Positions 1 through 19,770 of a stretch of 20,000 nucleotides of DNA are shown here, piece after piece. The notes beneath the pieces were generated by a model. It made no database searches, was not told where the DNA came from, and saw only the letters and a list, made by a program, of their open reading frames with translations. The stretch is from an uncultured virus (IMG/VR IMGVR_UViG_3300035511_000224) (lineage: Duplodnaviria; Heunggongvirae; Uroviricota; Caudoviricetes), in IMG/VR virus record IMGVR_UViG_3300035511_000224. One strand, 5' to 3'. A program made the translations under genes and the position numbers. The stretch's first letter is position 1. Each line of letters opens with the position of its first letter.

Positions 1-3000
1 TTCAGATTCATTCGCTGTCTCTTCCTCTCCATCATCCTCTTCTGTATATTCAACGCCTGTTGCTGCTTGTACATCTTTATCCATGTCGGCATATTTCGCT
101 TCCTTCTCAGCCATCTCTTTCTTCATCAGCTCATCGTACTCGTCCAACTTGGATTCAGCCTGTGCAAGCTCTTCCGTGAATTGGAATGGCTTGCCCTCGC
201 GTAATTCCATGGAATGCAGTTCTTCGTTGTTACGTTCGATAGAGCGTTCAGCACTCTCTATGCGTTCGCGGAAGTCGTTACCGGTTACTACATTCTCCAC
301 AATGTCAGATATAGCATTTTTGATAAGATTCTCTTTCACCGGCATCTTTTCAATACCAAGTTCCTCACAAGAATAGGTCATCTTGGCAGGAGCCGAGGCA
401 AACAGTGCACCTTGTCCTTGCTTCATCTCCTGTGTAATCTCGGTGTGAATCTTGAAGTCAAAACCTCCGACACTAACAGTGATGTCCATGTTCGCACTTC
501 TACTGTTGTATCCTGTTCGAACCTGCTCCTGTAACTCGCGTTTCTTTTTGTTCTGCTCGCTAAAGAAGTCCTCCATAGCGTCAATATTGGCAAAGCTCTG
601 CTTTCCTACCGTGATGTTGCTAATCTCTGCCTTCTCAACTTTCTCCAGGTAGACCTTATTCTCTGCGGCTCTTTGCTCGGCCTCCTTGTTCTGGCCTGCA
701 ATCTGTCTCTTGCGGTTGTGAATATACGTTTGGTCTGCCTCCCAAGCCTTTTGTTTGGCTCTGAGTTTACGGACCTCTTTCTCTATCTGGTTCTTCATCA
801 TAGCATATTCGGATCCTGACAATTGCGCGGTCATATCACCAAACAAGTCCTGGTCCTCTTCCATAGAGCGGTTGTCCATGGAATTACTCATCAACTGCTT
901 GCCGTTCATGATAGAGTCAGCTATCGCGCCTTTGGTTTTGAGTCGTTGATAGGCTGTAACGTCCAGTGAGTCTTCAACACCAAAACGAAGCACTTTGACA
1001 GGCTTGTTCCAATCTTTGTGCAGGTTACCTTGACGCAAGATACGACCGTTGCGCTGCGTGTAGTCCATCGGTCGGTTAGGTGCATCAACGTGTATAAGAG
1101 TGTTGAGGCGATCTTGAATATTCACACCTGTACCGAGTGTAAAGGTACTACCCAAAATTACACGTACGTCACCGGCATTCACCTTGTCAAAGATTTCAAG
1201 TTTCTTCTTCACACTCATTCCGGACTTCATTACAACAATCTGCTCGGCAGGTACGCCTTGTGCTATGAGCTTGCTTCTTATGTCCTCGTACAGGTTGAAG
1301 CCTGTAGCTTTGTTCTGATAGTTATCTGCAAAGATTGCCACTGTACCTTTATAGTCCTTGGTCTCTTCGAGAGATTGTAAGGTCTGTCTAACGGCCTCAT
1401 TGGTTTTACTGTTCGGATCATCTTCGGCATCTGCTTGCACGAGTCGAGCATCTACGGCAGCGGCTTTCGCTATACCGTACATAACAAGTGGAATGTGGCT
1501 ATTGGCCTTCTTCTCCTTTCCACTCATCTTATCGTATTCGTCAAGCTTTGCATTCACATATTTCAATATACTGCGCAATGCTCGCGTCTGAGGCAGGAAT
1601 ATGTCTTGTGCCTTTCCTCCCTCCATTGAAGGTATCTTGTCACTCACGCCACCGGCTTCTCTTGTCAGCACGGTATCTGCGACTGTTGACCAAATACGCA
1701 CAAGTTCCGGAAGGTTCACGTAACCGGCAAAGCGGTTGTTCTCCTTTGGCTTGCCGTTCGTTCCAAATTCCAACATCTGTTGGATATTACCGAAGTTGCG
1801 TACAAAATCGTCAAAGTAGTAGATACCATATTCTTTCATCTGGTCAGCAGGCATAAGGTAGCGCATGAACGTCCATATCTCGGCCGCGGTGTTACTGATA
1901 GGTGTACCTGTCGCAAACACCACGTTCTTACCTCCGGTCTTTTCAAGCACTGACTGTGCCTTCAAGAATACGCCCTGCGACTTCTTGCTATATGAAGGGT
2001 CAACGCCTTTCACACCTCGCTGCATGGCTGTAGCGAATCCGAGGTGCTTGTACTCGTGAGCCTCATCTACAAGGATGGCGTCAATGCCCATGCTGTCGAA
2101 GTCCTCAACATCATCGGTCTCACGGTCTAGCATCTCTCTTGCCTTGACCTCTGCGTTCTGTCGTGTGACAGCTGCTTTCTTGGCGTCCTTCTCTTTCTTC
2201 TTGTCAGGTACTCCGCCACTAGCGAGCTGAGCAATTTCATCTTCAAGCCTGCTGATTTCACGCTCCGCTTGTTTTACAATAATGCTATTTCCATGCGGGT
2301 CGGCATTCTTCATCTGTTCCAAGACAAGCATTTTTTCCTCGATTTTGTCTTGGATGAATCGTGTTTGTCGCTCTATACTATCTGGAATGCGTTCAAATAC
2401 AGATTGAGGAACAACAATCATATCCCAATCATTGAACTTAATCTTAGCATAGAAAGCCTTACGGCCCTCCGCATTGCGGTCGGCATCTTCAAGTGTCAGC
2501 ACCTTGGCGTTAGGGTACAACGCTTTGGCACTTGCTACGAATTGGCCTACGGTGGCATTCTGTACTACTATCATAGGCTTTCTTGCAGTGCCGAGTCTGC
2601 GCATCTCCATGGCGGTTGTAATAAGAGTGTATGTCTTACCGGTGCCCACCTCGTGTGCCAACAATACTGGCTGTGTGGTTGCTCTGATAACGGCTTTTGC
2701 TTGATGAGGTCTCAACTTGAACGGCTTACCACCTACGACGGTTGCTGCACCTCCGAAGTGCTCCGGAACAAAATCATCGGGGATTTGCTTCGGAACGGAA
2801 TTGTTAAACTGTTCGTTGTACTCTTCCTCCATGCGCATAGACATATCAGGGTCTGCTTGCATCTGTTCTCTAGCCCAATCTTTGAAGTCTTGACGTATCT
2901 CATCAATCTTAGCCATACATGCAGCTGTCGCTGACGGATCGCGTTCAGTCTCTGTGCTTCCGTCTGGCATCTTATATGTTTTGCTGACAACAATGCTCTT

Positions 3001-6000
3001 GTTTGTAATGGCAGCTTCTATCAGTTTATGTCCTGGTATAAGGGTTCCAAATGCTTCACTACGGACTCCCATCTCTGTGTTCTTGGATGTATTTGTATAG
3101 AATGGCTCACCCATGTGCCAGGTACCACCGACACTTGTCAGTGTTACATCCAAGTCAGTACGTTCCTTAACAAAGCGCTCGTACAACTTCGGGTCAATCC
3201 AAGACGAGCCAAGTGTGAACTCGATAAGGTGTGCAGGTATATTCATAGGAACAACGGCCTCCAGCGCCTTGATATTGGCGGTGTAGGCTCCGGGGTTGTC
3301 TTTCTCTGCTTCTTTTGCTTGACGCAGTTTCTCACGCACATTGCCACTGAGGTACTCATACGACACTTCCATCTGTCCGGTGGTCGGATTTTCAAAGCCC
3401 AAACCACGTTCCACCATTTCATTCTTTATCTCCTCCTTACTCTTTCCTAAGTGCTCTGCAAGATAGTCGGAGTCAATGCGGCCAAACTTATACAGACTTG
3501 CAATGATACCATCTTTCACATTGGTAGGTGCCGGCTCTGTTTCCTTGTCAACGACACGACGGCTAAAGATGTCGGTCTTTCCGTACTCTTTAATTTTGCT
3601 GCCGTTCTTGTCACCACGCTCCGAGTAGGTCTCAAGCGCGACAATGCTCGAGAAGTCAACGTCGTTGCGCATCCACGCAAGATTGTTGTTCTTGTTGAGG
3701 TTGCCATACTTCTTCACGAAACTGTCATAAGCGTTATTAAGTTTATTAAGCAACGGCTGCAAGCCTTTGTCATCATCATGCTCTGTTTGGTATTTCAGGA
3801 CCTCAGCAAGAGCATCTTTGATGGCCGTATAGTCTTTGAAGCACTCTTGTTTGGTGTGTCCTTTAATCTTATTGTTGTTTACATCTACAGGTACGGCACG
3901 GCCACTTCGAGCGATACAGATGTTGCCATCGCTGTCTAGAACCATGCTTCCTTCTTTCACACCTTCACCAAGAGCTTCATTGATGTGTGAAGTCTTGTCT
4001 ATTTCGGCTCTACTACCTTGCTCGGATTTCCAGTCTTTATCAGCCAGGCTCTTCACCCATGCTGCAATACGTTCCGTTTGGTCAGCTGAGCGGGTAGGGA
4101 AGAGGCCCATTGAAGTTGGACGGTAATTGTCTCCCTGCTCAAAGCCGAAGAACATCTCACCACCCATATTTTCAGGATGCTCTATGAAATAACGATTAAT
4201 GAGCAACGGAAGGTCTCTCGTCTTTCTTCCATCTGTGAATGCTGCGGTACGTGCAGGACTGACCGTGCTCACGTCGATGGCATTTGCGCTTCGCTGTCCG
4301 TTTACTCGCTTACGTATCACGATGATGTCTGAGGTGGCTGCTGTACCTCCGAATGTTTGATTGTTCATGCGGAATGCACCAACGACATCTGCGTTACCTT
4401 CATGTTCACCTACAATCCAATTGCGAAGCTTTTGAGATTTGTCGAGTGTACCACTTGAAGTGATGAATATACCGATACCTCCTTCACGAAGCTTGCGTAC
4501 ATTCTTAGCGATACAGAAGTCGTGAATGTCGCGGAACTTCTTAGAGAGGTCGCTGTCTCCGCTCTCGTCCATTACGTGCAAGCCTGTGACGAATGGCACA
4601 TTGGTGATGGCCAGATCTACCGTACCGTTACCAATATGTGTTTTCTCAAAGCCCTGTACATCCACTTTAGCATCCGGATATAGTAACGACAGAATACCAC
4701 CTGTCATCTTGTCTATCTCGACGGCATGGATATTACTGCGCTCGCTAATGTCGGTCGGCATCAAGCCGAGGATGTTTCCGATACCGGCTGAACCCTCAAC
4801 GATATTACCTCCTTTAAAACCGAGTGCTTTAGCAATATCCCACATTGCGTCGATAACAGGTGCAGGTGTATAGTACGCACTGTTACGGCTCATCACCGCT
4901 GCATCGTACTCCTCCTGTGTAAGAGCTTTGCGAAGCTGCTGGTTGACAGGATTGCGTGACCATGCATTACCTTCATTAAATGCGGCTCCTAAGCCTCCCC
5001 ATCCGCTATATTTACGAAGAATGGTCATCTCTTGAGGTGTGGCTGTAGCTCCGCTTTCAAGCAGTTTCTTGGCAAGCTCTATCGCTGCGATATTGGCATC
5101 TATACGAGCCTTCTCACCTTTGGGCGCATAATCAACACCACGCTCAGCATGGTTGTTGTGCGTGTTCTTCGGCTCCGTTACGCCTCGCTCGCTCTGATGT
5201 AGTCCAGATACTCCTGTGCTTCGTTTGGTGTCAGACACAGGATGCTCTCCACTACGTTCAGCCACTCCTCCTCGGTCAGTTCGCTCATTTTCATGTGCTG
5301 CGCTCTCTCCCAACGATTCATCAGATCGCGGTTGCTGTCTCCCTCGCCCGGTTGTTTCGGTGCTAGGTCGTACGTCAGTTTTCTCATTGTCGTTATCTTT
5401 TTGAGTGTTATTTACTTTATTTTTCGGCTCAACCTTGGATGGCTCTTCTTCTTTTGTCTCTGCAAAAAGAGGTCCAAACAAGTCACCAATAGTTTGATTT
5501 TGCGTCTCTATCTTCTTAATTCTGCTCCAATCAGCTTTTTCTTTTATCCAATTAGTTCCAAATGAATTAAGGATAGGACTTCCATCTTCGTCGAAGTCAA
5601 CAATCTGCTGTTTCTCCCACTTGCCATTGCCAACTCTGTCCCACATGACATAGTCACCACGTTTGAAGCCGTTGTGTGTCTCATTCTCTTTAGATACACG
5701 CGCTGCCATCTTTACTAAGTCCTCACCAGGGTTAGGTTTCAATGGGGTAGCAGGTTTCACTTTCTCTTCCGGAAGGAGGTGTCTTATAGCTCTACGCACA
5801 TCGGCAATCAGTGCATCATAGGTAACATCTGATGTTATATCATGGTTACCGGTGAGGTATCTGTTTTCTCCTCTTCCTTCCGGATCTTCTGCCCTGAAAT
5901 ATCCTCCTTTGAACACCAAATCGTCTGACGGTCTGTCGGCTCTACCATTGGTAATCCACTTAGAGTTAGGTTCCATGAATAGCACCATGCTAAGTTCTTT

Positions 6001-9000
6001 GCCATTGCCAAGTGGAAGTGTGATTGTCACTTCTCCACCAGCCGGAGCAATATTGCTATGAGCTATCTTGCTACCAAAGCCATAGCGTCTATCGGCTTTT
6101 ACCTTGTCTTTGGCATCAATAGCAAGTCCGAGGTCTTTGGCCAACTGTGTCGCAAGCTGATGCGCATCCTGCGTTGCTTTACGCTCTGCATTGCGCATAT
6201 AACCAAACATCTCGTTGTAGTCCTTATCAACCTCGTCTGCCTCGTAATATCCGAGCAGGGCAAGCTGTTTGTTTACTTCCTCTATTTCTTTGTTGATGCT
6301 TTGATCGAGTCGCTCGGCATCTTCCTCAGTTGTTGCATTTTCGAGTTTACTTTCGACTTGACTTGCAGTAGTCTCTGCTTGGTTGACAACAGCTTCTGTA
6401 TCTGCTGATGTTTTGTCAGCCTCTTTTCTTCTTTGCTCATTACGTTCTTCTTTAATGGTTTCTATTAATTTGTCTGTCTGTTGTTGAGAAGCATTCTCAT
6501 CGACTATCTGTTGTGCAGTTCCGATGATGTCCTTGGCTCCTTGCTTATCAAAGTTATAAACGTCGAAAGCCTTAACGGTCTTTCTGTCGTCCATCTCTTC
6601 GTCCCATCCGAGGTCCATTACCTCCTCCATGTTCTGTGTGGCGGCATATAACGGTTTCAGGTGCGGTCTGATGGCTTCGCCTAACTCATCAACCATTGCT
6701 TCTGCATAGTCCGAGAAGGAACGCAGTCCACCCTTCATCATAAGGTATGTCATTCGGGTACCCATACGAAGAACTTCTGCATCCATCTCTTTAGGCTGCT
6801 GTTTACCGTAGCTCACTTCATCTTCTTTGGCGATGTTTGGGATTCCGCCAAGGTGTGAACGCAGACTATTTCGAAGTGTGTCAAACTCTTCGGCATCCTT
6901 GTCGCTAATCCATTTGCGTCTCTTCGGCTTCGTCTCCTCTGCTTGCGGTTGAGGCTTCGGCGCTTGCGGCTTCTCTTCAACTGGTGTGGCATGGTCGCTA
7001 AGCTTGGTGCTTCCCTTCGTGTATAGGGCATTGAATAATCCTTCAACATCTACCTTCTTGACTGTCGGCTCTTCCTCCTGCTGTTTCTCACTCATATCAG
7101 CCATTGAAAGCGGTGCCTGGTCGGCAACCTCGTCCTCGCTTTTACCCATGATGGCATCGGCAAACGCCTGTGCGTCCTCACGTGTTTTAAATAAGAATCC
7201 TTTCTTACCGAAGTTGGACCAATAGCCTCCATGCTCCTTAGCAATAGCTTTCTGACCTTTGAACTCTTCACGGCTCACTCGATCCTCAAACTTCACTGCA
7301 AAGATGTCCGAGTTATCGCGTGTGTCCTTACGAGGTTCTATGGTGTAGCCTTCGGGTTCTTTTCCCGTTGGGTGCTCGTCTGTGATTTTGTCAACCTTGG
7401 CATAGTCGGCAAAAGGTTTGGTCTTTCGGTGGCTGCTGTCCACCCACTTCTTAAACTCGTCCATGTTCACTTCTGAGATACGAAGTCCCGGATGTGTGTC
7501 TGCCCAATTAGCATCATAGTTGGCAAGGTACGCCTCCATAGCTGCGTCCTTGTCATTGAAGCCAAGCATAACCTTGTGCTCGTCGAAGGTGCCGTCACTG
7601 TTTGTTTGGTCAACGACGAATGCTTTCTTGCCGTCCCATGACTTGATGTCGTTGGCAAGGAACACATCTATATGGTCGCCATCCACGCCCTCAGTGCCAC
7701 GGAAATATCCATAGCTATTCTTCATGGGTGTCTCCCACTGTTTCCCGTTAGAATCAGTGCCACGGCGTACACTGCCTTGTGTGTTCTCGATGGTAACGTC
7801 GAATGGACCAACCTTCACATGGCCCTTCTTATAGTTTCCTGCCTCCTTCTGTGCTTCGGTCGGGTTGTTGTTAACCTGCTGCTCCGCTTCGGCAATCTTG
7901 TCGGCTGTTTCCTCGAGTGGTGACTTCACCTCTCTAGCGCTGCTCTTATCGAACACAATGACCTCGTTAGGCAGTGCTACTGCCTCGCGCATGTCTTTGC
8001 TTGCGTAGTTGATGATGCCGTCATATCCTTGTTCCTTCAACTTCTCCGTGAAAGCTGCTGCCTCTTCAGGAGTCATGTTGGCCACACCTACAGTGTAGTA
8101 AGGCTTCTTCAATGTGATGTTTGCCTCAAATACCTTGCCCTCTGTATGTCCGTCACTCGCGTAGTCCTCGGCAACAGAGCGGTTTGGTGTGAATGATATA
8201 CCATCACCATTGAATCGTGCAGGAGCTTCTTCGCCGTCACGATGGTGCCCTGGCTCGAGGTCGCTCAATGAATTGACATCATCATTTGGTGTACCATGAT
8301 ACAACGTGAGTGTCGTTCCATTAGCGTCAACGATGTTACCATCCTTGTCAACGTTCGTAGGAGTCTGGTCTACATCTTCTGTCAACTGCTTAATGTTGTC
8401 TGCATGCGTTGAACTTTTTTCGTTCTCTGCTTGTTTTTCTGTTGACAAAGTATTAACTTTGCCTTCAGAAGAAACATCATCGCCACGAGATTCAAGGCTT
8501 ATTGCGGATGCAGATTCGTCTGCATGACTGATGGAGGAAGTGCCGCCCTCCGACGATGAACTTTTATGCCGTATGTCATCTATCTTGGCATACGGCTCTT
8601 TCTTTTGGTTGAATGTAGATTTGTGAAGAATGATTTTACCATTTTCCTCAACTTGGGTAAGTTCAGCAAAATAACGACCAATCTTCTTAATAAACACAAC
8701 GGTTCTCTTCCCATCTACAAACGTTTCTTTGATTGCATCCGGGCTGTCAAGAACAGTTTGAATATTAAGATATTTGCTTACATCTACATCTTCTACATCA
8801 ATCTGCATTCCTTCTTGAGCATGATTGCGTAGGGCATGGTCAATGAAATAACCCTTCCCACAGTATATACGTGGGTCGGAGATATTTGGATCGACGTATG
8901 AAAGATATTGTGCAGGTATATATGCTATCGGTTCCGGCTCGTTGCCAAATTCTTCAAAGATTTCTGTACGAGTCTTGCCAATACCCTTGGTGAGGTTTTC

Positions 9001-12000
9001 ATCAGAGAGCCATTCTACAATACGAGACTGCATCTCTGTCCTTTCCTCACCGCTTACTTCCTGCGGTATAACTCTTTCATGTTCGCTCTCATCTCCGCCT
9101 GTTGCGCTATCTCTTGCAGTTCTTCCTCTACGCTCGGTCGGTTCTGTTCCGCCCTCAGCTTGTTCTCCACCTTTATATGGTTCATTGCTTCCAGGTTCCC
9201 CTTCTGTGCTTCCTGTATTACTGAGAGCCACATCAGGACCTCCATTCTTGTCATTGTTGTTTCCATTCTTAGCCGGTTTATAATCAAAATTAAATACTTT
9301 CTTTATTGCCTCCGCAAGAGGGTACAGCGTAGTATCAGCCTCACTAAATAGTGATGCTGCGACTTTGCCCTGTGCATAATCAAACATCCGGTTGAAATAT
9401 GAAGCGATGGTTGTCTGCGACATATCACCTGCTTTATACAACCCTGCGAGATGCAAAGCAAAGTTACTAAAATTATCAGAAGGTCTGACTTGTTCAGAAC
9501 GATCATCAAACATTAATTGCCTTTTGTAGTCCTCAATTGCACGAGATGCCTGTTCTAGATTCTTCGCATTCTTAAATGCTTCGTCACGTTCCAGCTCATT
9601 ATAAGCCACGATAGATGCTTGTATCTCCGGCAAGGCCTTTCCTGCAAAAGGAGAATCCATGTCGCGGAATGCCGTTGACAGAATTGCACGTTGAGCCTTG
9701 GCAGGAAGTTTGTCAAACAGCTCCTCTAACTGCGGTGTAGCACCTTTAAATACTGCTTGATACAAAACCTTCTGCAAATCATTCTTAGCCTCTGGCGTGA
9801 TGGCGCCCTTGCTGTTGAATGCCGACTGGTATTGTGTATTACTGATGGCTCCAACTTGATTCATCCATTTCAGAACATCGGCACCGTTACTGTCAACGAG
9901 TTGGCCGAACGACGCATCTTCATCAGCTGAGCGGAGCAACATATTGGCATACTTGCGCATATCGTCGCCCAACTTCTGTGCTACGTTCTTCGGCTTGATA
10001 CGTTCTACGCCACCGCTTTCAGTGTCATTGGCGGTCATCTGACCTAAGCGAATAGCCTCGTTATCGTCCACATCAAGCATATTTACGAGGACTGGCTGCT
10101 GCTTACTGTTAACGGTTTCTGCATCAATGCCAAGTTGCTCTGCATTGTCGAGAAGGTATTGCTTGTATGCCGCTTGCTGTTCTGGTAGACTGTTCTCCCA
10201 CAAGTAACGCAAAGCGTCCGTGCGGTTATTGCCTTGTACCACCTCACCACGAGTGTTAACTGTCGGTGCGCCGGTGTAAGCGGTTGTGCTACCTGTAATC
10301 TCTTCTGGTCTGATGTTCTCGGCAATTTGTTGTGCTGCGAGTGTTGACACGGCCTCTGAGCGGTTCTTTGGCTGTGCCTCATCAATAAAGTACATCGGGT
10401 TGCGCTTACCTTGAATGTGTGAAGGTTGCAGCTGCGATGCCTCAATCACTGCCACACGTCCGTGCGGTATATCTTCCTGTGAGAACTTGACATTAACCTC
10501 TTTGCCAAGCGCTGCATCAGCGATAGGCTCTTGGCGAACGAACAGTTGACCTTGGAACCGTCGCGCACCTCTAGCACGTGCGTTCTCAGGAGTATCTCTA
10601 TGCCATTCGGGAATACCTTCAAGTGCTTCACGCTCTTTGCGCTCAGCCTCCTCTTGTGCAGCCTTTGCCTCGCGTTCCTGTTCGGCTCTCTCTGCTGCAA
10701 GTCGTTTTTCTTCGGCTTCTTGCTTACTGCGGATGGCATCTTGCTCACGACGTATCGCATCCTGTCTAGCCTGTTCAACACCGGCAATCTTCTGCCACTG
10801 TTCAAGCTCCTGCTGAGCCTTGGCGAGTTCTGCGGCATTCTGTCTCTTAGATTGGAGTATCTCGGTTGGAGTCTTGCCCTTCGATTTGAGTTTCTGCGCT
10901 TTCTCGAAAACTTTGCGCTTCTCCTCAACCATAGTGTCGGCAATCTCCTTGGCTGTGTCCTTGTCTCCCTCGCTGAACTCGATAAGACCATCCCACGCGA
11001 CCTCGGGAGTCTCGGCTTGCTCAAAGATAGGTTCACCATTTTCATCACGAGGAATACTTTGAAGCGGTGTCTGCTCTTCGGCAGGTACTGCAGGTTGCTG
11101 TTCATTTTCTACGGATTGTGAACTCGAAGGTGCGTTTTCTGTTCGCAAATTGCCGTTTTCTGTAATGTTTGGGCCATTTTCCGTACCAAATTCACCGTTT
11201 TGCGTAATATTTGGAGCATTTTCCGTGATATTTTCATTAGTTTCCGTATTTGCGACTTCGGCACCTGACTCCTGTTGTCTGCGCTGTTGCTCATACTGTA
11301 AAGCTGCGACATATCCACTGCCGGCATCAGTCATTTGCTCAGCTTCATTGTTGATGCTTTCCAACTCGGCATTTAGTTCTTCGTCAGTCATCTTCTCAGC
11401 AGACTGCATGCCAGCTGTATATCCTTTCTGGTATTCGTTCGGATCTGCACCCTCAGTAGTCGTTGGCGCCTGAGTGGGTGTTTCCTCTTGCTGTTTTGTA
11501 TCTGGTTTGAAGTCTGTAACCATACTATCAAGCTCTTGCTCAGACGCATAGTGCAAGTGACTGAGGTCTCCTTCTACATAATACTCATACTTGCCAATCT
11601 CGTTGGGAGATAAGCCAAGTTCATCGTAATTATCCTCGGTAACAGTCGTTCCGGTAAGCCATCCTTTAGACTGTGAACCATCGCTGTTTTGTATAGAGAT
11701 TCGTCCTGCACCATACTTCGGCTGTTCTGTAGCTTCCGGTTGCTCGTCAGCTGCTGCTTCGGGTGTAGGTGTAGCCTCTGTAGTAGCCTCTTCTGCCTTG
11801 TAAGGCTCGTAAGACAGAATGTCTTTAGGAGCAACCATCTCCACCTTGCCGGTATTGATGTCACGTATTACAATAGTATTGTCGCTCTTCGCGTGATCAA
11901 CCATTTTACCATCATCGGTCATAACGACATTTCCGCTAAGCACCTCAACCTGTCGGTCCTGGAACTGCATAACGGCTCGTCCTATCGGCTTCTGTTCCCC

Positions 12001-14991
12001 GTTAGGTTCATGAGGTTCTCCATTGATGTCACCCTCTGGCTGTGGATCTGGGCCATTGATTGGGCCTTCGGTCGGCTCACCACTGTCGGTCAAAAGCTTT
12101 TGGTCTTTCAGAAGCTTTTGGTCTGTGACGTCAGTTGCGTCAGCATCTTCAACTGTGCGCTCTTTGGCCTTGTTAGGGATAAGCTCGTTGATATATTCTT
12201 GAATGGCGCTGTTCTCAGCCTCTGTGCGTCTCCGCTCGTCCTTTCGAATTGCTTTGTCGATGTCAACACCATACTTGTCATTTATGCGGCCACGCATCTC
12301 GTCAGTTATAGTGGTTTCATCATAGTCACCTATAGCCTCGACAACCTTGCGAAGTATGTTCTGCTGTGCCTCGCTAAGTTGGTCGTTCTTGTCAGCACCT
12401 TTAAGATGATTGCGACGTGCCTCTTCGCAAGTGCGGTACACTTGCACCATGTCCCAACCATTCTCTTCGGCAACCTTGCGACAAGCGTCTTGCAATCGGT
12501 TCTCAAAGTAAACAATATTCTGCTGATATTGCTCACCTTTTTCTATCTGGTTGATTTCAGCTTGTCGTTTGATGCGTTCCAACTCGAGGTCAGCTGCTTT
12601 GCGGTCTTTAAAGCTTCGCGAGGTGATAACACCATTTGCTCCTTGCGATTCCACAATGAAGCCTCCGTCACCATCTTCAATCATCTCTCCACGCATAATT
12701 GTAGATGGAGGAAGCTGTTTACCTGTAGCATAGTAGTACATCTTTGCACGTGCTGCTTCACTAACACGATTGTCTTCTAACATGTCAGTTAAACGGCTTA
12801 CAATCTTCGGCGCATCTTTTGTGATAAGACTTCCATCAGATGGATTACCTTGTCTCTCGGCGCTCTCTACAAGGCTGCGGAGGTCTCCATAACCATTGCG
12901 TTCCAGTTCGGCCTTCTCGTCCTTTGTCAGTGCCATACCACCGTCTGATGGTGCATCCATGCGCATACGCAGACGGCTCTCGAAGTCGAGACGATTCTTT
13001 GTGCCATTAGTCGGACTCTCGAGCGACTTCTTAAGGTCTCCAAGTACACTTCCTGCTGATTTAATCATGCCCTTAGCCTTGAAACCTACCATCATGGCCA
13101 TATTGTCCGTCCATACGTCCATTGCGTCTTGGTCTCCGTTCAACCATTCCGGAACGGAGAAGATGGTACCTTCCAATACAGTAGAACCGGTAAACACACT
13201 TGCACGTGTGGCAACCTTTCCGACAGTGCTCGACGTGCCTCGTACAAGTTTGTCAGATACATTACCAGACACAGGAGACAGCCAACCGATGGCCGCGCCC
13301 ATCATGCTACCATGAAGAAGTTGTTTTCCAACGGCTCCTGCCGAATATCCTTCATTCATATATCGTCCGCTCTGGTCTTGGCCCACGATGTGACCTCCAT
13401 GAGCGAATTGTGTTTCAGCCTCCTTGATACCTTCCATAGCACCGAAGTTGGCTGCGCCACCTACAACACCACTGACGATACGACCGGTTAATGTAGTCGC
13501 GAACTGGCGTGCAGCGGCGTTTGTTAATGCAGCCGTAGCTCCACGGCCTACAAGATAGCGTCCACCTGCCCACATCGCGCCCTTTGCGGCAGCACTACCT
13601 ATACCTCCGGAAATCCATGTGGTTGGATCGAGAGCAAAACCACCCACGGTACCCACAACACCAAGTACCTTGTGTCCGTCTTGGCGATATTCTTCATTGG
13701 CGGCTTCGTATGCTGCCATATCACCGGTTTTACCGGAAGCGGCCAAAACTTCAAATCCTTTGGTGATATTGTTCACCATGTTACCATCTGAAATTTTACG
13801 TGCAAGGTATTCAAGCTCATTCTTAGGACGGTTCTTCTCGACGGCAAGATCGTACAAGCGCTTATCGGACTGTTGTCGTGCCATCTCTTCTGCTTTCGTA
13901 TAAAGAAGGAGGTCATCCTCACCTGGATAACGGTAACGCAGCATCTGATGACAATCGTCGATGAGTGATTGTTGGCCTTTCTCTCCGAGATTATTCCATG
14001 AATCTTCCATTAAGCGGTCAAGATCAAAATTGGTGAGTCTCGCTACATCCATTTGATATTTCAATCCTGTAGCCATCGCTCGGTTTTCTCTACCACCTAA
14101 CGCCAAAGATTTCAATCCTTTCATTAAGACGTTCTCTTGACCATTTAACTCAGGAGACTCATGCTTTATGATTTTTTCTGACTGTTCATTCAGCCTTTGT
14201 TCAGCAGCGTCCCACGCCTGCTCTGCGGCATTCTCGCCCTCTGCCGGATCATGACGACTCCACAAGGAACTAAGACGGCCCTCAAATTCACGTTGCAACC
14301 GTTTGTTTTTGGAGCGTTGGCCATCCTCGGTGTTGTTTTCCCACCAGGTATGATATTCAGTGTTCTTCCGGCTCTGCTCCATAGGCGTACTTACTCGATC
14401 TCCTTGTTGTGTGTAGTAGACCTTCTCCATCTTTCCGGTCTGTGGATTGAACACTTGCTCACCGGTAGATGCACCAAGCATGTTTCCCTTTTGAATATTC
14501 TCCATGAACTGTTGATTATCCTCCAGGGTCTTTCTCACTTGCTCGTTAGCCTGTCCAATTTGCATGTCAATTGCCTTGCGTTGCATCTCCGTCGGTTGCC
14601 ACGTCGGCTCTTTGGTCTGCTGTGTTGTCTGCTCCGGCTGTTTCACTGCCGGTGCCGTCGGATGATTTTCAACTTTAGCAGAAGTCGCTGTTCTATCTAC
14701 TACAGGATTTACAACAGATGTAACCTGCTTAACAGGTGTACTCGCTTGTGTCTGCGCCTGTTGATTTTTTGTTGTACTACTCTTTGCAGGTGCCTGCGCT
14801 GCCACGGCTCCAATATCCTTAGAGAAGGTGTCGAAGTCTGGCAACGAATAAGCTTTCTGCATATTGTTGTAGAAACGTCTGCGCTTCTCCTCGTCCTTCA
14901 TATCTTTAGAGAAAGTATCGAAGTCAGGAAGCGAGAAGTGCTTCAAGCCGTTTTCGTACAACTTGTGTAAGTTATCGTTTGGATTAACCAT
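1..14991 (-). CDS. Giant phage polyvalent / internal virion protein (DarB-like MTase-helicase containing), >=4997 aa, 3'-partial
   Basis: ATG at 14991 (MVNPNDNLHKLYENGLKHFSLPDFDTFSKD...). The same frame reads ...TGVEYTEEDDGEEETANESE at positions 60-1. It was open in every segment I translated, and the track reports no closed ORF in this frame, which an internal stop would have produced. Several recognisable domains lie in frame. Confidence 0.92.
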   Translation of the reverse strand, partial: MVNPNDNLHKLYENGLKHFSLPDFDTFSKDMKDEEKRRRFYNNMQKAYSLPDFDTFSKDIGAVAAQAPAKSSTTKNQQAQTQASTPVKQVTSVVNPVVDRTATSAKVENHPTAPAVKQPEQTTQQTKEPTWQPTEMQRKAIDMQIGQANEQVRKTLEDNQQFMENIQKGNMLGASTGEQVFNPQTGKMEKVYYTQQGDRVSTPMEQSRKNTEYHTWWENNTEDGQRSKNKRLQREFEGRLSSLWSRHDPAEGENAAEQAWDAAEQRLNEQSEKIIKHESPELNGQENVLMKGLKSLALGGRENRAMATGLKYQMDVARLTNFDLDRLMEDSWNNLGEKGQQSLIDDCHQMLRYRYPGEDDLLLYTKAEEMARQQSDKRLYDLAVEKNRPKNELEYLARKISDGNMVNNITKGFEVLAASGKTGDMAAYEAANEEYRQDGHKVLGVVGTVGGFALDPTTWISGGIGSAAAKGAMWAGGRYLVGRGATAALTNAAARQFATTLTGRIVSGVVGGAANFGAMEGIKEAETQFAHGGHIVGQDQSGRYMNEGYSAGAVGKQLLHGSMMGAAIGWLSPVSGNVSDKLVRGTSSTVGKVATRASVFTGSTVLEGTIFSVPEWLNGDQDAMDVWTDNMAMMVGFKAKGMIKSAGSVLGDLKKSLESPTNGTKNRLDFESRLRMRMDAPSDGGMALTKDEKAELERNGYGDLRSLVESAERQGNPSDGSLITKDAPKIVSRLTDMLEDNRVSEAARAKMYYYATGKQLPPSTIMRGEMIEDGDGGFIVESQGANGVITSRSFKDRKAADLELERIKRQAEINQIEKGEQYQQNIVYFENRLQDACRKVAEENGWDMVQVYRTCEEARRNHLKGADKNDQLSEAQQNILRKVVEAIGDYDETTITDEMRGRINDKYGVDIDKAIRKDERRRTEAENSAIQEYINELIPNKAKERTVEDADATDVTDQKLLKDQKLLTDSGEPTEGPINGPDPQPEGDINGEPHEPNGEQKPIGRAVMQFQDRQVEVLSGNVVMTDDGKMVDHAKSDNTIVIRDINTGKVEMVAPKDILSYEPYKAEEATTEATPTPEAAADEQPEATEQPKYGAGRISIQNSDGSQSKGWLTGTTVTEDNYDELGLSPNEIGKYEYYVEGDLSHLHYASEQELDSMVTDFKPDTKQQEETPTQAPTTTEGADPNEYQKGYTAGMQSAEKMTDEELNAELESINNEAEQMTDAGSGYVAALQYEQQRRQQESGAEVANTETNENITENAPNITQNGEFGTENGPNITENGNLRTENAPSSSQSVENEQQPAVPAEEQTPLQSIPRDENGEPIFEQAETPEVAWDGLIEFSEGDKDTAKEIADTMVEEKRKVFEKAQKLKSKGKTPTEILQSKRQNAAELAKAQQELEQWQKIAGVEQARQDAIRREQDAIRSKQEAEEKRLAAERAEQEREAKAAQEEAERKEREALEGIPEWHRDTPENARARGARRFQGQLFVRQEPIADAALGKEVNVKFSQEDIPHGRVAVIEASQLQPSHIQGKRNPMYFIDEAQPKNRSEAVSTLAAQQIAENIRPEEITGSTTAYTGAPTVNTRGEVVQGNNRTDALRYLWENSLPEQQAAYKQYLLDNAEQLGIDAETVNSKQQPVLVNMLDVDDNEAIRLGQMTANDTESGGVERIKPKNVAQKLGDDMRKYANMLLRSADEDASFGQLVDSNGADVLKWMNQVGAISNTQYQSAFNSKGAITPEAKNDLQKVLYQAVFKGATPQLEELFDKLPAKAQRAILSTAFRDMDSPFAGKALPEIQASIVAYNELERDEAFKNAKNLEQASRAIEDYKRQLMFDDRSEQVRPSDNFSNFALHLAGLYKAGDMSQTTIASYFNRMFDYAQGKVAASLFSEADTTLYPLAEAIKKVFNFDYKPAKNGNNNDKNGGPDVALSNTGSTEGEPGSNEPYKGGEQAEGGTEPTERRGRTARDSATGGDESEHERVIPQEVSGEERTEMQSRIVEWLSDENLTKGIGKTRTEIFEEFGNEPEPIAYIPAQYLSYVDPNISDPRIYCGKGYFIDHALRNHAQEGMQIDVEDVDVSKYLNIQTVLDSPDAIKETFVDGKRTVVFIKKIGRYFAELTQVEENGKIILHKSTFNQKKEPYAKIDDIRHKSSSSEGGTSSISHADESASAISLESRGDDVSSEGKVNTLSTEKQAENEKSSTHADNIKQLTEDVDQTPTNVDKDGNIVDANGTTLTLYHGTPNDDVNSLSDLEPGHHRDGEEAPARFNGDGISFTPNRSVAEDYASDGHTEGKVFEANITLKKPYYTVGVANMTPEEAAAFTEKLKEQGYDGIINYASKDMREAVALPNEVIVFDKSSAREVKSPLEETADKIAEAEQQVNNNPTEAQKEAGNYKKGHVKVGPFDVTIENTQGSVRRGTDSNGKQWETPMKNSYGYFRGTEGVDGDHIDVFLANDIKSWDGKKAFVVDQTNSDGTFDEHKVMLGFNDKDAAMEAYLANYDANWADTHPGLRISEVNMDEFKKWVDSSHRKTKPFADYAKVDKITDEHPTGKEPEGYTIEPRKDTRDNSDIFAVKFEDRVSREEFKGQKAIAKEHGGYWSNFGKKGFLFKTREDAQAFADAIMGKSEDEVADQAPLSMADMSEKQQEEEPTVKKVDVEGLFNALYTKGSTKLSDHATPVEEKPQAPKPQPQAEETKPKRRKWISDKDAEEFDTLRNSLRSHLGGIPNIAKEDEVSYGKQQPKEMDAEVLRMGTRMTYLMMKGGLRSFSDYAEAMVDELGEAIRPHLKPLYAATQNMEEVMDLGWDEEMDDRKTVKAFDVYNFDKQGAKDIIGTAQQIVDENASQQQTDKLIETIKEERNEQRRKEADKTSADTEAVVNQAETTASQVESKLENATTEEDAERLDQSINKEIEEVNKQLALLGYYEADEVDKDYNEMFGYMRNAERKATQDAHQLATQLAKDLGLAIDAKDKVKADRRYGFGSKIAHSNIAPAGGEVTITLPLGNGKELSMVLFMEPNSKWITNGRADRPSDDLVFKGGYFRAEDPEGRGENRYLTGNHDITSDVTYDALIADVRRAIRHLLPEEKVKPATPLKPNPGEDLVKMAARVSKENETHNGFKRGDYVMWDRVGNGKWEKQQIVDFDEDGSPILNSFGTNWIKEKADWSRIKKIETQNQTIGDLFGPLFAETKEEEPSKVEPKNKVNNTQKDNDNEKTDVRPSTETTGRGRQQPRSDESLGESAAHENERTDRGGVAERSGEHPVSDTKRSTGVSGLHQSERGVTEPKNTHNNHAERGVDYAPKGEKARIDANIAAIELAKKLLESGATATPQEMTILRKYSGWGGLGAAFNEGNAWSRNPVNQQLRKALTQEEYDAAVMSRNSAYYTPAPVIDAMWDIAKALGFKGGNIVEGSAGIGNILGLMPTDISERSNIHAVEIDKMTGGILSLLYPDAKVDVQGFEKTHIGNGTVDLAITNVPFVTGLHVMDESGDSDLSKKFRDIHDFCIAKNVRKLREGGIGIFITSSGTLDKSQKLRNWIVGEHEGNADVVGAFRMNNQTFGGTAATSDIIVIRKRVNGQRSANAIDVSTVSPARTAAFTDGRKTRDLPLLINRYFIEHPENMGGEMFFGFEQGDNYRPTSMGLFPTRSADQTERIAAWVKSLADKDWKSEQGSRAEIDKTSHINEALGEGVKEGSMVLDSDGNICIARSGRAVPVDVNNNKIKGHTKQECFKDYTAIKDALAEVLKYQTEHDDDKGLQPLLNKLNNAYDSFVKKYGNLNKNNNLAWMRNDVDFSSIVALETYSERGDKNGSKIKEYGKTDIFSRRVVDKETEPAPTNVKDGIIASLYKFGRIDSDYLAEHLGKSKEEIKNEMVERGLGFENPTTGQMEVSYEYLSGNVREKLRQAKEAEKDNPGAYTANIKALEAVVPMNIPAHLIEFTLGSSWIDPKLYERFVKERTDLDVTLTSVGGTWHMGEPFYTNTSKNTEMGVRSEAFGTLIPGHKLIEAAITNKSIVVSKTYKMPDGSTETERDPSATAACMAKIDEIRQDFKDWAREQMQADPDMSMRMEEEYNEQFNNSVPKQIPDDFVPEHFGGAATVVGGKPFKLRPHQAKAVIRATTQPVLLAHEVGTGKTYTLITTAMEMRRLGTARKPMIVVQNATVGQFVASAKALYPNAKVLTLEDADRNAEGRKAFYAKIKFNDWDMIVVPQSVFERIPDSIERQTRFIQDKIEEKMLVLEQMKNADPHGNSIIVKQAEREISRLEDEIAQLASGGVPDKKKEKDAKKAAVTRQNAEVKAREMLDRETDDVEDFDSMGIDAILVDEAHEYKHLGFATAMQRGVKGVDPSYSKKSQGVFLKAQSVLEKTGGKNVVFATGTPISNTAAEIWTFMRYLMPADQMKEYGIYYFDDFVRNFGNIQQMLEFGTNGKPKENNRFAGYVNLPELVRIWSTVADTVLTREAGGVSDKIPSMEGGKAQDIFLPQTRALRSILKYVNAKLDEYDKMSGKEKKANSHIPLVMYGIAKAAAVDARLVQADAEDDPNSKTNEAVRQTLQSLEETKDYKGTVAIFADNYQNKATGFNLYEDIRSKLIAQGVPAEQIVVMKSGMSVKKKLEIFDKVNAGDVRVILGSTFTLGTGVNIQDRLNTLIHVDAPNRPMDYTQRNGRILRQGNLHKDWNKPVKVLRFGVEDSLDVTAYQRLKTKGAIADSIMNGKQLMSNSMDNRSMEEDQDLFGDMTAQLSGSEYAMMKNQIEKEVRKLRAKQKAWEADQTYIHNRKRQIAGQNKEAEQRAAENKVYLEKVEKAEISNITVGKQSFANIDAMEDFFSEQNKKKRELQEQVRTGYNSRSANMDITVSVGGFDFKIHTEITQEMKQGQGALFASAPAKMTYSCEELGIEKMPVKENLIKNAISDIVENVVTGNDFRERIESAERSIERNNEELHSMELREGKPFQFTEELAQAESKLDEYDELMKKEMAEKEAKYADMDKDVQAATGVEYTEEDDGEEETANESE
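900..2730 (-). other. SNF2/SF2 helicase domain of the giant protein (DarB-like)
   Basis: Q motif LRPHQ, Walker A HEVGTGKT (2655-2632), Walker B LVDEAH (about 2073-2056), motif III ATGTPISN, motif VI QRNGRILRQGN. Confidence 0.93.
4150..5160 (-). other. N6-adenine DNA methyltransferase domain of the giant protein (DarB-like)
   Basis: YSGWGG, motif X AYYTP, motif I VEGSAGIG (about 4800-4777), motif IV NVPF (4602-4591), LREGGIGIFITS. Confidence 0.92.
5178..5387 (-). CDS. Small helical protein (69 aa) nested in the +1 frame of the giant gene
   Basis: MRKLTYDLAP...LTEEEWLNVVESILCLTPNEAQEYLDYIRASEA has globular, amphipathic composition, while the host frame here is a disordered G/R/S/E linker. The start context aaaaagataacgacaATG has A at -3, -6 and -11 to -13. 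Confidence 0.65.
   Translation of the reverse strand: MRKLTYDLAPKQPGEGDSNRDLMNRWERAQHMKMSELTEEEWLNVVESILCLTPNEAQEYLDYIRASEA
7400..7870 (-). other. Inorganic pyrophosphatase (polyvalent-protein InPase) domain
   Basis: NPTEAQKEAGNYKKGH...IEN..GS.R.G...W...M...YGYFRGTEGVDGDHIDVF...VVDQ...FDEHKVMLGF...FKKW. Confidence 0.9.
7945..8360 (-). other. ADP-ribosyltransferase (ART-PolyVal-like) domain
   Basis: LYHGT (about 8304-8290), GDGISFTPNRSVAEDYA, KVFEANITLKKP, LKEQGYDGII, and terminal EVIVF carrying the putative catalytic Glu. Confidence 0.85.
8430..8461 (+). promoter_or_regulatory. Putative antisense Bacteroidetes primary-sigma promoter inside the giant gene
   Basis: cTTG (8430-8433), 20-nt spacer, TAACTTTG (8454-8461); compare consensus TTTG-N19-21-TAnnTTTG. 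Confidence 0.6.
8467..8565 (+). ncRNA. Candidate ~95-nt structured antisense RNA
   Basis: Closing stem TCATCG (8477-82) / CGATGA (8554-59); hairpin ATGCAGA-TTCG-TCTGCAT (8508-25); hairpin GGAGG/CCTCC (8533-51); short T-run at 8562-65; begins just after a promoter match. Confidence 0.45.
8560..8990 (-). other. PBECR-like (Barnase/EndoU/Colicin E5-D/RelE fold) nuclease domain
   Basis: ...YFIDHALRNH...YLNIQTVLDSPDAIKE...VVFIKKIGRYFAELTQVEENGKIILHKSTF fits the H...H / L..PD.I / strand-strand-(S/T)xF layout of phage BECR domains. The segment is lower in GC than other parts of the gene. Confidence 0.65.
9054..9266 (-). CDS. Small helical protein (~66-70 aa) nested in the +1 frame of the giant gene
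   Basis: METTMTRMEVLMWLSVIQEAQKGNLEAMNHIKVENKLRAEQNRPSVEEELQEIAQQAEMRANMKELYRRK. The host frame here is a disordered linker (GGPDVALSNTGSTEGEPGS...). ATG 9254 has A at -3, -6, -12, -13; ATG 9266 has A at -3. Confidence 0.62.
   Translation of the reverse strand: METTMTRMEVLMWLSVIQEAQKGNLEAMNHIKVENKLRAEQNRPSVEEELQEIAQQAEMRANMKELYRRK
10000..10510 (-). other. ddrB-like ParB-superfamily domain
   Basis: AVIEASQLQPSH...AQPKNRS...IAENIRPEEI...AYTGAPTVNTRGEVVQGNNRTDAL...YKQYL...LGID...PVLV. Confidence 0.85.
11131..11250. repeat. Degenerate 21-bp tandem repeat (5-6 units) in a linker of the giant gene
   Basis: Units start at 11131, 11152, 11173, 11194 and 11215, with consensus approximately gCc(a/g)TTTTcCGTaatatttgg; they encode TENAPNI/TENGPNI-like heptads. 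Confidence 0.75.
13070..13690 (-). other. Gly/Ala-rich hydrophobic segment (possible membrane-spanning ejection module)
   Basis: VLGVVGTVGGFALDPTTWISGGIGSAAAKGAMWAGG...IVSGVVGGAANFGAMEG...GSMMGAAIGWL, similar in character to N-terminal regions of injected phage proteins. Confidence 0.55.
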
Positions 14992-16155: not shown

Positions 16156-16653
16156 TTAGAATAAACTTGCAATATTTGAAGCTGACTGTGCCGCACCTTG
16201 TACTGCCTGAGTAATTGCAGTAGACTTAGCTTGCTCAAGATTATTCAACTGATTGTTGAGGTCTGCCTTCGTAGATAAGTATTGCGATTCAATCTGGTCC
16301 TTTCTACGGTCACCGTTAACAGCAATCTGAGATGTGGCATCCGCGAGTGCTTGATTGTTCGCTGCTTTCGCTGCGGCAACACTTTCTTCTGTACCACCCA
16401 TTACGGCCTGCGTACCTGCTGCTTGCTGATTACGCTGCTTAATGTTCTCATTCGCCATTGTAAGGATACGTTGTGCGTCTGCGCGCTGTGTAGCATCCTC
16501 GTTGTACCTTCTGTCGTACCAATCCTGATTCTCGGATTGTTGCGTCTGAATGTTCTGCTTGATTTTCTTCATCGCTTTGGATGCCTGGACTCCGCCGAAG
16601 ATACTTGCTCCGACGCCCAATGATCCACCGATGGTTGCGCCTAAAACTCCCAT
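16156..16653 (-). CDS. Putative small DNA-ejection/internal virion protein (P22 gp7 / T7 gp14-like architecture)
   Basis: Gly-rich hydrophobic N-terminus MGVLGATIGGSLGVGASIFGG followed by a Q/N/A-rich coiled coil. Confidence 0.72.
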   Translation of the reverse strand: MGVLGATIGGSLGVGASIFGGVQASKAMKKIKQNIQTQQSENQDWYDRRYNEDATQRADAQRILTMANENIKQRNQQAAGTQAVMGGTEESVAAAKAANNQALADATSQIAVNGDRRKDQIESQYLSTKADLNNQLNNLEQAKSTAITQAVQGAAQSASNIASLF

Positions 16654-17112: not shown

Positions 17113-17134
17113 CAAAGATATTTATCTACATTTG
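17113..17134. promoter_or_regulatory. Back-to-back divergent Bacteroidetes -7 promoter boxes
   Basis: Minus strand TATCTTTG (17120-17113) and plus strand TACATTTG (17127-17134), both TAnnTTTG, each facing an adjacent gene start (17079 and 17161). Confidence 0.7.
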
Positions 17135-17160
17135 CGGCACATCTTTAAGTTTTGATTTAT

Positions 17161-18151: not shown

Positions 18152-19642
18152 TTAGAAGCCTTTTCCCTTTTGGTGCTCGTAAACATAAACCTTGCCATTA
18201 TCCATGTTAACGATTTTGAATTGAACGATTGAGCGTTCCGGAATATCATCCGGGAATTTAGCGACCAATATCTTGGTAACCTCATCGACGTTTGAATAGC
18301 CAATATCCTCAAAGTGTGTAAGGCACTTACCCTTGAAGAATGCTGCTGCACGTATCAGCATTTTTGGAGATAAACGAAATACGCCGTCATCCTCTTCATC
18401 CTCGTGTATCATCCGTCGCGAGGTGGCATCACTGAACAAGATAAAATCAATCACACGCTCGTTAAGCTTCCAGGCAGGCGAGAAGTCTATTCGTACATAA
18501 CCTCTTGTCACACGAGCATATCTCTGAGAGTGATTCATGGCAAAGCCAACCTCGGACAATGAAGCTCCACAATCGTTCTGTGCTGTTGTGGCCCAGGTAT
18601 GGCGGAATGTGTACACGCAGTACCATTGCTCCTTTGGTATTCCCATGGATTTGCATATCGCCTTGATGCCTATGTTTACATTGGCGCTAAAACTGTCGTA
18701 GTTCGAATATCTCTCTCCGAAAACAAACAGATAGTCTGAGTCATCTCCGGCTTTATATTTCTCGAACATTGGTTTGAGGATCTCCGGCACTCGCATTTCC
18801 ATGTATGCACCATCGCTTCTGCTCTTCGTCGTCTTTGCTCGCTTGTAATGGATGATGCCTCCGTGATAGTCTTCTTTGCGAAGGTTGTAGATGTCAACTG
18901 TGTTTATGCCGGCTAAACACAAACACATCAAAGCGACATCGCGTCCGAGCTCTGGAAGTGGAGAGATCATCTTCGTCTTTGGCAGTGGAGCAGAAAAGAA
19001 TGCACGGCATGCCTCAGCTGTGATTGCTCTTTTCTCCGGTGTGTCTGATGGCGGAATTTTCACCTTCCCCCATGGATTGTTCTTGACTTGAATGATGCCG
19101 TTGTCGTAATCGTTCAGGTCATTAACAGCTGCTTTGAATATCTGACGGATGCACACCGGATACATCTCCTTGGCTCTCGCTGTTTTGGCCAATGTCTCTA
19201 TCCACTTGGTAATGTTCATCACTGTTAGCTGTGAAAACTTGACTTTTGTCGTGCCAAAGAAACACTCAATGTGCTGTAATGCTAGTTTGTAGTTCTTGGC
19301 GTTTCGCTCTTGCCCATTGTCAATTAGCTTGTCGATATACTTCCTGGCATACTCCGAGAAGGGCTCTACTTCTTCTGGAAGCATCAGGAACTCAACAATC
19401 TTTTTGCAACTCCAATCTCTTGTGTCGTGACGGTTCAGTCTATCCTGGTAGTCGATAATCTGCTTTGTGCAAAACTGCATCACGTATGGATCCTGAATCT
19501 CGCCGGTGCTAGACAGGTAACTTTTGGTGACAGCCTTGTCTGTCTTGATAAATAACGCCTGACGGTTTTGTGTCACCCGGATGTAGACCGTATAAAATCC
19601 ATCCGAACGAGGCCGTCTTACAACTGCTTTGAATGTAGCCAT
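18152..19642 (-). CDS. int: Tyrosine recombinase / phage integrase (496 aa)
   Basis: Likely start MATFKAVVRR (19642). N-terminal arm-binding region (YTVYIRVTQNR), SAM-like core (NAKNYKLALQH), catalytic region GINTVDI / KRAKT / YTFRHTWAT / MNH / TRGY. Confidence 0.93.
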   Translation of the reverse strand: MATFKAVVRRPRSDGFYTVYIRVTQNRQALFIKTDKAVTKSYLSSTGEIQDPYVMQFCTKQIIDYQDRLNRHDTRDWSCKKIVEFLMLPEEVEPFSEYARKYIDKLIDNGQERNAKNYKLALQHIECFFGTTKVKFSQLTVMNITKWIETLAKTARAKEMYPVCIRQIFKAAVNDLNDYDNGIIQVKNNPWGKVKIPPSDTPEKRAITAEACRAFFSAPLPKTKMISPLPELGRDVALMCLCLAGINTVDIYNLRKEDYHGGIIHYKRAKTTKSRSDGAYMEMRVPEILKPMFEKYKAGDDSDYLFVFGERYSNYDSFSANVNIGIKAICKSMGIPKEQWYCVYTFRHTWATTAQNDCGASLSEVGFAMNHSQRYARVTRGYVRIDFSPAWKLNERVIDFILFSDATSRRMIHEDEEDDGVFRLSPKMLIRAAAFFKGKCLTHFEDIGYSNVDEVTKILVAKFPDDIPERSIVQFKIVNMDNGKVYVYEHQKGKGF

Positions 19643-19677
19643 AACTCTGAAATATTTTGTTGAAAATCTAACTTTTT

Positions 19678-19770
19678 CACGTGGACAACACGTGGACAAC
19701 AGCACCATCAAAATGGTACAAACATTGGACAACATTGTTGTTCAAAAGTACACATTTTTGTGTCCAAATG
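19678..19770. repeat. Putative integrase arm-type binding sites of the att region
   Basis: TGGACAACA at 19682, 19693 and 19726, plus an inverted partial copy (TGTCCA) near 19762, between ppdK and the int start. Confidence 0.6.

Follow-up and report, generated by a model that had tools for sequence, protein, structure and literature searches.

A conserved antisense RNA behind the BECR-fold nuclease domain of a phage polyvalent protein: a candidate RNA antitoxin

How does a cell survive the production of a polyvalent phage protein that carries a predicted RNase domain? According to one survey, as many as 26% of polyvalent proteins carry domains of the PBECR type, and its accessible text leaves the survival of the producing cell unexplained (PMC5512222). 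We consider the question at one locus, in a stretch of 20,000 nucleotides of DNA from an uncultured virus (the window, meaning the whole stretch that was analysed), where the relevant genes and the domain are located as follows:

1..14991, minus strand: gene of the polyvalent protein, 4997 codons or more, open at the left end of the window
8569..9045, minus strand: PBECR3-like (BECR-fold) predicted RNase domain, amino acids ~1983-2141, from Pfam, alignment and structure model
16156-16653: T7 gp14-like internal virion protein gene, upstream of the polyvalent gene (weak match, E 2.5e-4, below the cut-off)
18152-19735: integrase gene, upstream of the polyvalent gene

According to Pfam, the polyvalent protein combines ddrB-ParB, PBECR3-like, ART-PolyVal, InPase and SNF2/helicase domains, and Bacteroidales records supply most of its closest relatives. 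The gp14-like gene, weak as its match is, and the integrase fit a prophage end, and together they suggest a prophage whose polyvalent protein is ejected from the virion. Divergent TAnnTTTGC boxes are seen on both strands at 17120-17134, between the minus-strand genes and a plus-strand ORF at 17152.

The nuclease domain itself is recognized by Pfam PF18812 (PBECR3) with E 1.1e-4 and 22.5 bits on a 217-aa piece, which does not reach the gathering cut-off of 30, while several members of the clade exceed it (e.g., L003 at 44.1 bits). PBECR3 is the only Pfam family on the domain, with no ToxN, CptN or TenpN family, and PADLOC and PHROG give no family. In the alignment of 35 homologs the FIDH histidine is invariant, the NH histidine is nearly so, and the HKST strand is present. 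The structure model has a pLDDT of 94 and its nearest solved folds are BrnT (Z 5.2, rmsd 3.0, 72 aligned), CdiA-CT NC101 (Z 4.9, rmsd 3.3, 86 aligned) and colicin D (Z 4.1, rmsd 4.1, 86 aligned); Foldseek gives no match at E<=0.001. By model and alignment the domain can be assigned to the BECR-fold RNases, with modest Z scores to the solved members (3.5-5.2) and an activity that is predicted. The titles of the solved BECR neighbours are those of toxin-immunity or toxin-antitoxin complexes. The colicin-like BECRs so far characterised cut mostly tRNA, and PBECR3 is named in this group in the accessible part of a recent study (10.64898/2026.08.28.747851).

What lies behind this domain? A preliminary description had proposed that the linker there hides, on the opposite strand, a promoter and a structured small RNA. 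From the sequence and its homologs we consider this antisense unit to be real, with a putative promoter (8431-8461), an RNA core (8478-8558) and a predicted terminator (8568-8606), and the parts are assigned as follows:

8431..8433, plus strand: TTG, the putative -33 element in a promoter of the Bacteroidota type
8454..8461, plus strand: putative -7 box TAACTTTG, where the coding strand reads G-K-V-N
8478..8558, plus strand: four-way-junction RNA core, from alignment, mutual information and consensus folding
8478-84/8552-58, plus strand: P1, 7 bp
A8485, G8487 and A8488, plus strand: invariant junction bases
8489-92/8501-04, plus strand: P2, with 2/4 pairs standard in the window's clade
8505-07/8528-30, plus strand: P3, with a GA bulge at 8526-27
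8508-14/8519-25, plus strand: P3 hairpin with a UUCG loop
8533-37/8547-51, plus strand: P4, with a 9-nt loop in which C8544 and G8545 are invariant
GGC 8496-98 with GCC 8542-44, plus strand: loop-loop kissing contact, from covariation
8568..8606, plus strand: hairpin of 11 bp followed by a U-tract, resembling an intrinsic terminator and running over the final nuclease-domain codons

The motifs first noticed are found where they had been placed: TTG at 8431, TAACTTTGC at 8454-8462, TCATCG/CGATGA at 8477-82/8554-59, and the two hairpins ATGCAGA-TTCG-TCTGCAT (8508-25) and GGAGG/CCTCC (8533-51). The -33 and -7 elements were read against the Bacteroidota promoter consensus, and TAACTTTGC belongs to the sole TTG-N19-21-TAnnTTTG in the window, both strands considered; transcription would start near 8467. 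The element is larger than the extent originally given for it: it probably continues past the short T-run (8562-65) to the predicted 11-bp terminator with its U-tract at 8568-8606.

Are the promoter and the terminator found in the homologs? The homolog search, on 50%-identity representatives, gave 205 proteins, 150 of them listed, and among these listed matches about 120 homologs with the domain end keep the linker pattern, followed by a promoter-like shadow. This comparison supports reading the peptide GKVNTL as a shadow cast by an antisense promoter. Scans gave 114 loci, 72 of which, counting the window, are distinct and have sufficient flank. A promoter box lies just upstream of the RNA in 62/74 distinct copies against 3.8% of random windows, within distance limits chosen after the data had been viewed; by the set rule 12/74 copies are without the box. 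The type of box mostly follows the host phylum: records labelled Bacteroidota have TAnnTTTG, and those of spirochaetes, Margulisiibacteriota and Kiritimatiellia have TTGAC-N17-19-xAnnnT. The exceptions are Bacillota-labelled MAG contigs with the Bacteroidota box (L035, L037, L055, L056, L077), which are likely mis-binned. A terminator-like hairpin is present in 52/77 distinct copies against 10.9% of random windows, under ad hoc limits and with a U-tract that lysine codons favour, and in the terminator overlap the codons CCG, GAC, ATA and CGG are fixed in 17/17 close homologs. In a metatranscriptome run (X1), 9% of the words are present. A 376-nt contig from a relative matches 8464-8508 at a depth of 68, against 2-5 for four other pieces; it shows neither strand nor start, and DNA may have contributed to it. 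Upstream this contig continues unlike the window, a loose end that has no match among the loci compared.

The next question is whether the transcript has a structure of its own. By itself, 8467-8570 folds no better than many shuffled sequences (z -0.40, with 59/200 shuffles folding equally well), so the case rests on the comparison with homologs; with the terminator included (8467-8610) the fold has a z of -2.36, which 5/200 shuffles reach. When the antisense element is aligned from 54 distinct loci, 24 of the 28 pairs have changes on both sides and 91% of the cells are paired. The covariation score is 0.544, compared with 0.187 for shuffled and at most 0.122 for slid alignments, controls that are lenient because the structure was derived from the same alignment. 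On the tree of 68 nuclease domains, P1 to P4 show 51, 16, 63 and 29 double substitutions against 24, 10, 9 and 2 breaks, in total 159 against 45. P2 is weak in the window's clade and is 76% paired overall. The pseudoknot first suggested, between CCGC and GCGG, is complementary, but its covariation of 0.077 is reached by 58/500 shuffles and the GGC/GCC kiss is supported instead. Among the 54 sequences both-side changes number 11 at one pair of the kiss and 5 at another, and cognate loops (33 loop types) pair at 3.95 versus 3.02 for non-cognate ones, which 0/2000 permutations reach. Read on the antisense strand there are 66 G-U cells against 30 A-C cells, an excess that favours this strand as the RNA strand. 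Fourfold-site identity among the 17 close homologs, in which L057 with its upstream frameshift was retained, is 0.965 in the element against 0.41-0.45 in the domain. The compensatory changes and the synonymous fixation thus indicate that the linker encodes a conserved structured RNA, as had been suspected. The distances of the RNA and of the nuclease domain correlate only moderately (rho 0.37), and the variable RNA parts are the P3 loop and the L2 insertions.

We turn to the question of whether the RNA and the domain travel together. We applied the covariance model (R1) to the window together with 83 of the 114 loci, omitting near-duplicates and two loci that stop where the domain stops. It gives a match behind the domain, always antisense, in 81/84 sources, of which 54 are training sequences and two have matches clipped by contig ends. 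All of these matches are single copy, downstream and on the opposite strand. The three misses are two truncated domains and L072 (2938-3450, from a Kiritimatiellia record), a stand-alone protein with the sole full-length domain that is without the RNA and with a hydrophobic, signal-peptide-like stretch at its N-terminus (by eye; n=1). Across 15 close homologs the nucleotide identity reaches 0.88 over the RNA and 0.87 over the terminator and falls to 0.43 past the promoter, and the domains next downstream differ between homologs. Where the ORF ends at the domain end the element is still kept, with 17/17 core bases in L076, L108, L110, L111 and L114, 16/17 in L106 and 11/17 in L069, and stand-alone modules of nuclease and RNA are found in L044, L049, L059, L064, L083, L104 and others. 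As far as the sequences indicate, domain and RNA are inherited as one cassette, within a virion polyvalent protein, alone, or inserted in another gene, and the travelling cassette proposed at the outset is upheld.

Several observations belong beside these. In L086:3-3377, L095:1-2745, L089 and L091 a PurL-like gene carries the cassette as an in-frame insertion before GATase_5; in L086, AIRS_C lies upstream of the cassette and GATase_5 after it. At L031:2680-2771 there is a second RNA copy, untranslated and diverged, with its own TTGAC-type box, ~300 nt from the first and beyond the stop, possibly an orphan immunity RNA. Over 151 genomes of one order, R1 gives a strong match in the source genome only; seven weak matches (19-23 bits) were taken for noise on inspection, with L125 set apart. 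Cultured phages and plasmids gave no match to the domains of the window or to LPD13.

Do other BECR domains have RNAs of a similar kind? Two additional covariance-model matches sit behind LPD13 (PF18825), a domain of unknown function that is accompanied by a related antisense RNA in L082:1771-2196 and L128-L192. The LPD13 model is closest to the same BECR toxins (CdiA-CT NC101, Z 6.0, rmsd 4.0, 84 aligned) and so appears to resemble the BECR fold, while the profile comparison of the PBECR3 clade with LPD13 is weak (probability 3.6%, E 0.012) and the fold link between the two rests on models. An antisense TAnnTTTG box is found behind LPD13 in 39/41 and behind PBECR1 in 41/48 distinct loci. Both have related four-way RNAs that covary, kiss included, in 17/30 pairs over 22 sequences for LPD13 and 16/17 pairs over 23 sequences for PBECR1, these sets being made of more closely related sequences than the PBECR3-like set. 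R1 matches at E<=2 in 34/66 LPD13-search loci, mostly with low scores, and the LPD13 search over 401 genomes gives one match, below the cut-off. The geometry of the LPD13 RNAs is 12+4, compared with 7+5 bp in the PBECR3-like RNA.

In the record of the cultured phage Itty13 (L269) all annotated genes run opposite to the frame of the nuclease, and no gene is annotated at the PBC5 match (L268). The PBECR1 model (R2) finds untrained copies of the RNA in 3/7 cultured phages, namely BPP-1 bbp10 (L267) at 64.7 bits, Itty13 at 61.9 bits and phiHP33 weakly; there is no match in PBC5, Atu_ph08, BcepMigl and the Campylobacter phage. A box lies 50-130 nt behind 7/8 other PBECR1/2/3/MuF_C domains against 4/44 non-BECR domains, and behind 0/7 PBECR5 domains, whose ends are uncertain. 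In L042, L051, L146, L150 and L262-L266, antisense boxes and closing stems that differ in sequence stand behind PBECR2, MuF_C and canonical PBECR3 domains; scanning with MuF_C brought up no relatives. Behind LPD13 in L128 (~2422-2570), the linker apparently holds parts of two RNA subtypes in tandem under one promoter, and in L066 an antisense TAnnTTTG box lies ~82 nt behind a Zeta_toxin domain (aa 1742-1884), possibly a toxin-RNA pair and possibly chance.

To what known RNA could the element be compared? A tRNA was rejected: ARAGORN finds 0 in 13 sources, Rfam gives no tRNA match, the CCA end and the T-loop motif are absent, the fourth loop has 9 nt, and there is no conserved anticodon loop. 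A riboswitch of the SAM-I clan was rejected as well, with no Rfam match at E<=5, 2 or 1, variable SAM-binding pairs, and the antisense of the nuclease downstream in place of methionine genes. Likenesses to hammerhead, TPP and ZTP RNAs were considered and found no match in Rfam. In all, Rfam gives four weak irrelevant matches in the window, none of them at the element, and 0 in 16 + 14 loci.

What, then, would the RNA do? The roles of inhibitor, decoy and antisense regulator named in the preliminary description are all inferences. The reading that we prefer, and to which we give slightly more than an even chance, is that the RNA is an antitoxin that binds and blocks the cognate nuclease. The host housekeeping polymerase would make the RNA constitutively, the RNA would fold compactly in a cloverleaf-like topology with the loop-loop kiss closing the core, and the folded RNA would bind and block the nuclease. 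The lysogen or producing cell would thereby make the toxic domain safely, and after injection into a naive cell that does not have the RNA the domain would be active; the RNA may also confer immunity against superinfecting phages with the same domain. We infer the blocking from the conserved unpaired bases and the kiss, the stand-alone two-part modules, the PurL-like insertion, the tight layout that leaves no place for an immunity gene, and the signal-peptide-like start of the sole RNA-less domain. The conserved bases include unpaired ones of the junction and the loops, for which plain antisense pairing has no need. Since the characterised colicin-like BECRs mostly cut tRNA, substrate mimicry is plausible even though the RNA is not a tRNA; the mimicry is a topological analogy only, as the 7+5 bp geometry is lost in the LPD13 RNAs. 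More tentatively, and with somewhat less than an even chance, the proposal may extend to PBECR1, 2, 3, MuF-C and LPD13 as a class, each with a family-specific antisense cloverleaf-like RNA in the coding linker, serving as a substrate-mimic immunity RNA in place of the colicin/CDI immunity proteins.

Because the RNA is by its position fully complementary to the mRNA, it could also act as a type I-like cis-antisense silencer, pairing over ~140 nt including the last nuclease codons, causing decay or a translation block, and silencing leaky toxic expression in the lysogen. A unit with its own promoter and terminator would suit this role, and kissing-type loops are common in antisense RNAs. We nevertheless find it rather unlikely: pairing in cis needs neither invariant unpaired bases nor a covarying intramolecular kiss, the whole virion protein would be off when needed, and the additional L031 copy sits past the stop. 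It is unlikely, too, that the RNA is a cofactor or guide, a subunit of an active ribonucleoprotein that would enter the virion along with the protein and, once in the new host, activate or direct its cuts. Each nuclease family has one RNA type with conserved tertiary features, and the P3 loop and L2 insertions vary; these variable parts, however, are short paired hairpins and no guide-like single strand, the nearest solved BECR structures bear the titles of toxin-immunity or toxin-antitoxin complexes, and the L072 domain exists without the RNA.

The order of promoter, core and terminator is also that of a riboswitch, and the core could be a sensor or attenuator, an aptamer that decides whether transcription passes the terminator and yields a long antisense RNA over the nuclease. 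The P1 top and first junction read AUC-AAGAG...GAU in many copies, which resembles the SAM-I consensus. In the window's clade, however, the A-U and U-A pairs that contact SAM in SAM-I are G-C and C-A; Rfam has no relevant match in the window and 30 loci, no conserved antiterminator is apparent by eye, and a downstream gene is absent, so that we regard this as very unlikely. Still less probable is a mobility signal at the DNA level, or the mark of a selfish cassette, in which the structure would serve as single-stranded DNA or for addiction when the domain inserts in frame: the cassette edge is sharp at the promoter and the cassette does stand in frame between AIRS_C and GATase_5 of the PurL-like gene, but the one-strand G-U excess, the boxes at start-site distance and the terminator point to RNA. 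That only a linker peptide is functional and the nucleotide pattern incidental is hardly credible, for although the peptide is conserved in about 120 homologs among the matches listed and length changes are mostly multiples of three, the synonymous fixation and the compensatory pairs oppose it and the untranslated copies contradict it.

How does the proposed antitoxin compare with known systems? In type III toxin-antitoxin systems a tandem-repeat antitoxin array precedes the toxin gene, both being read from one strand, and the ToxI pseudoknot is of the H-type. Like these systems (ToxIN, CptIN, TenpIN, AbiQ), the present locus combines a predicted RNase with a small structured RNA containing a pseudoknot-type contact, and direct neutralisation is proposed. 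Unlike them, it has a BECR fold and a single ~80-nt four-way-junction RNA with no tandem repeats, which lies downstream, within coding sequence but on the opposite strand, and has a predicted promoter and terminator of its own. When the locus is tested against the features of the type III families, the contact is present as the covarying kiss, in a topology unlike the H-type of ToxI, while the upstream same-strand repeat array and a ToxN/CptN/TenpN toxin are both absent; the kinship with type III antitoxin families is not supported. The RNA would work like a type III antitoxin and fall outside the type III families. Of the earlier interpretation as a whole, the promoter shadow, the structured RNA and the cassette are retained, and the pseudoknot and the type III kinship find no support.

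With type I systems, as described in the accessible text of PMC11980606, the locus shares the layout of a small antisense RNA that converges on the toxin gene and overlaps its mRNA; judged by its sequence only, it has the cis RNA complementary to the mRNA with its own promoter and terminator. Here, in contrast, the toxin would be an enzyme domain inside a protein of 5000 aa, and the tertiary fold of the RNA is conserved. The AbiF protein that is paired with an abiF-motif RNA is of the Abi_2/AbiD/F type with Cas13 links and not a BECR, going by the accessible portion of 10.1101/2025.04.15.648962; the present RNA has no Rfam abiF match, and its gene coincides with coding-strand sequence for a virion protein of several domains. 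The PBECR domains of polyvalent proteins in PMC5512222 agree in domain class, in ParB, ART, InPase and SNF2 neighbours and in the proposed virion delivery, but its accessible text names no immunity factor or RNA, and LPD13 is missing from the main text. Colicin D/E5 and CdiA-CT, the nearest solved folds, have protein immunity, whereas here an RNA gene occupies that place and no immunity gene is possible inside the ORF.

Our literature search found no paper describing the RNA. The element's motifs are absent from six supplementary files of PMC10690425, and that screen for RNAs of DNA viruses, as its accessible text describes it, removed predicted genes first. One of the papers found, PMC5389517, deals with allo-tRNAs near toxin-antitoxin systems. 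We regard the RNA family coupled to phage BECR nucleases as real and apparently undescribed, with a proposed function.

RNAs inside coding sequence are invisible to screens of intergenic regions only, and the PBECR1 version of this one is available in the cultured phages BPP-1 and Itty13. An RNA gene overlapping the linker would account both for the survival of the producing cell and for the domain mosaicism of polyvalent proteins. If the RNA is an antitoxin, it would add a new toxin fold, a new RNA fold and a new gene arrangement to the RNA-neutralised toxins. If the proposal holds for the class, each BECR domain would be a self-protected module, swappable into polyvalent proteins or housekeeping genes, and lysogens would have an RNA-based immunity against injected effectors.
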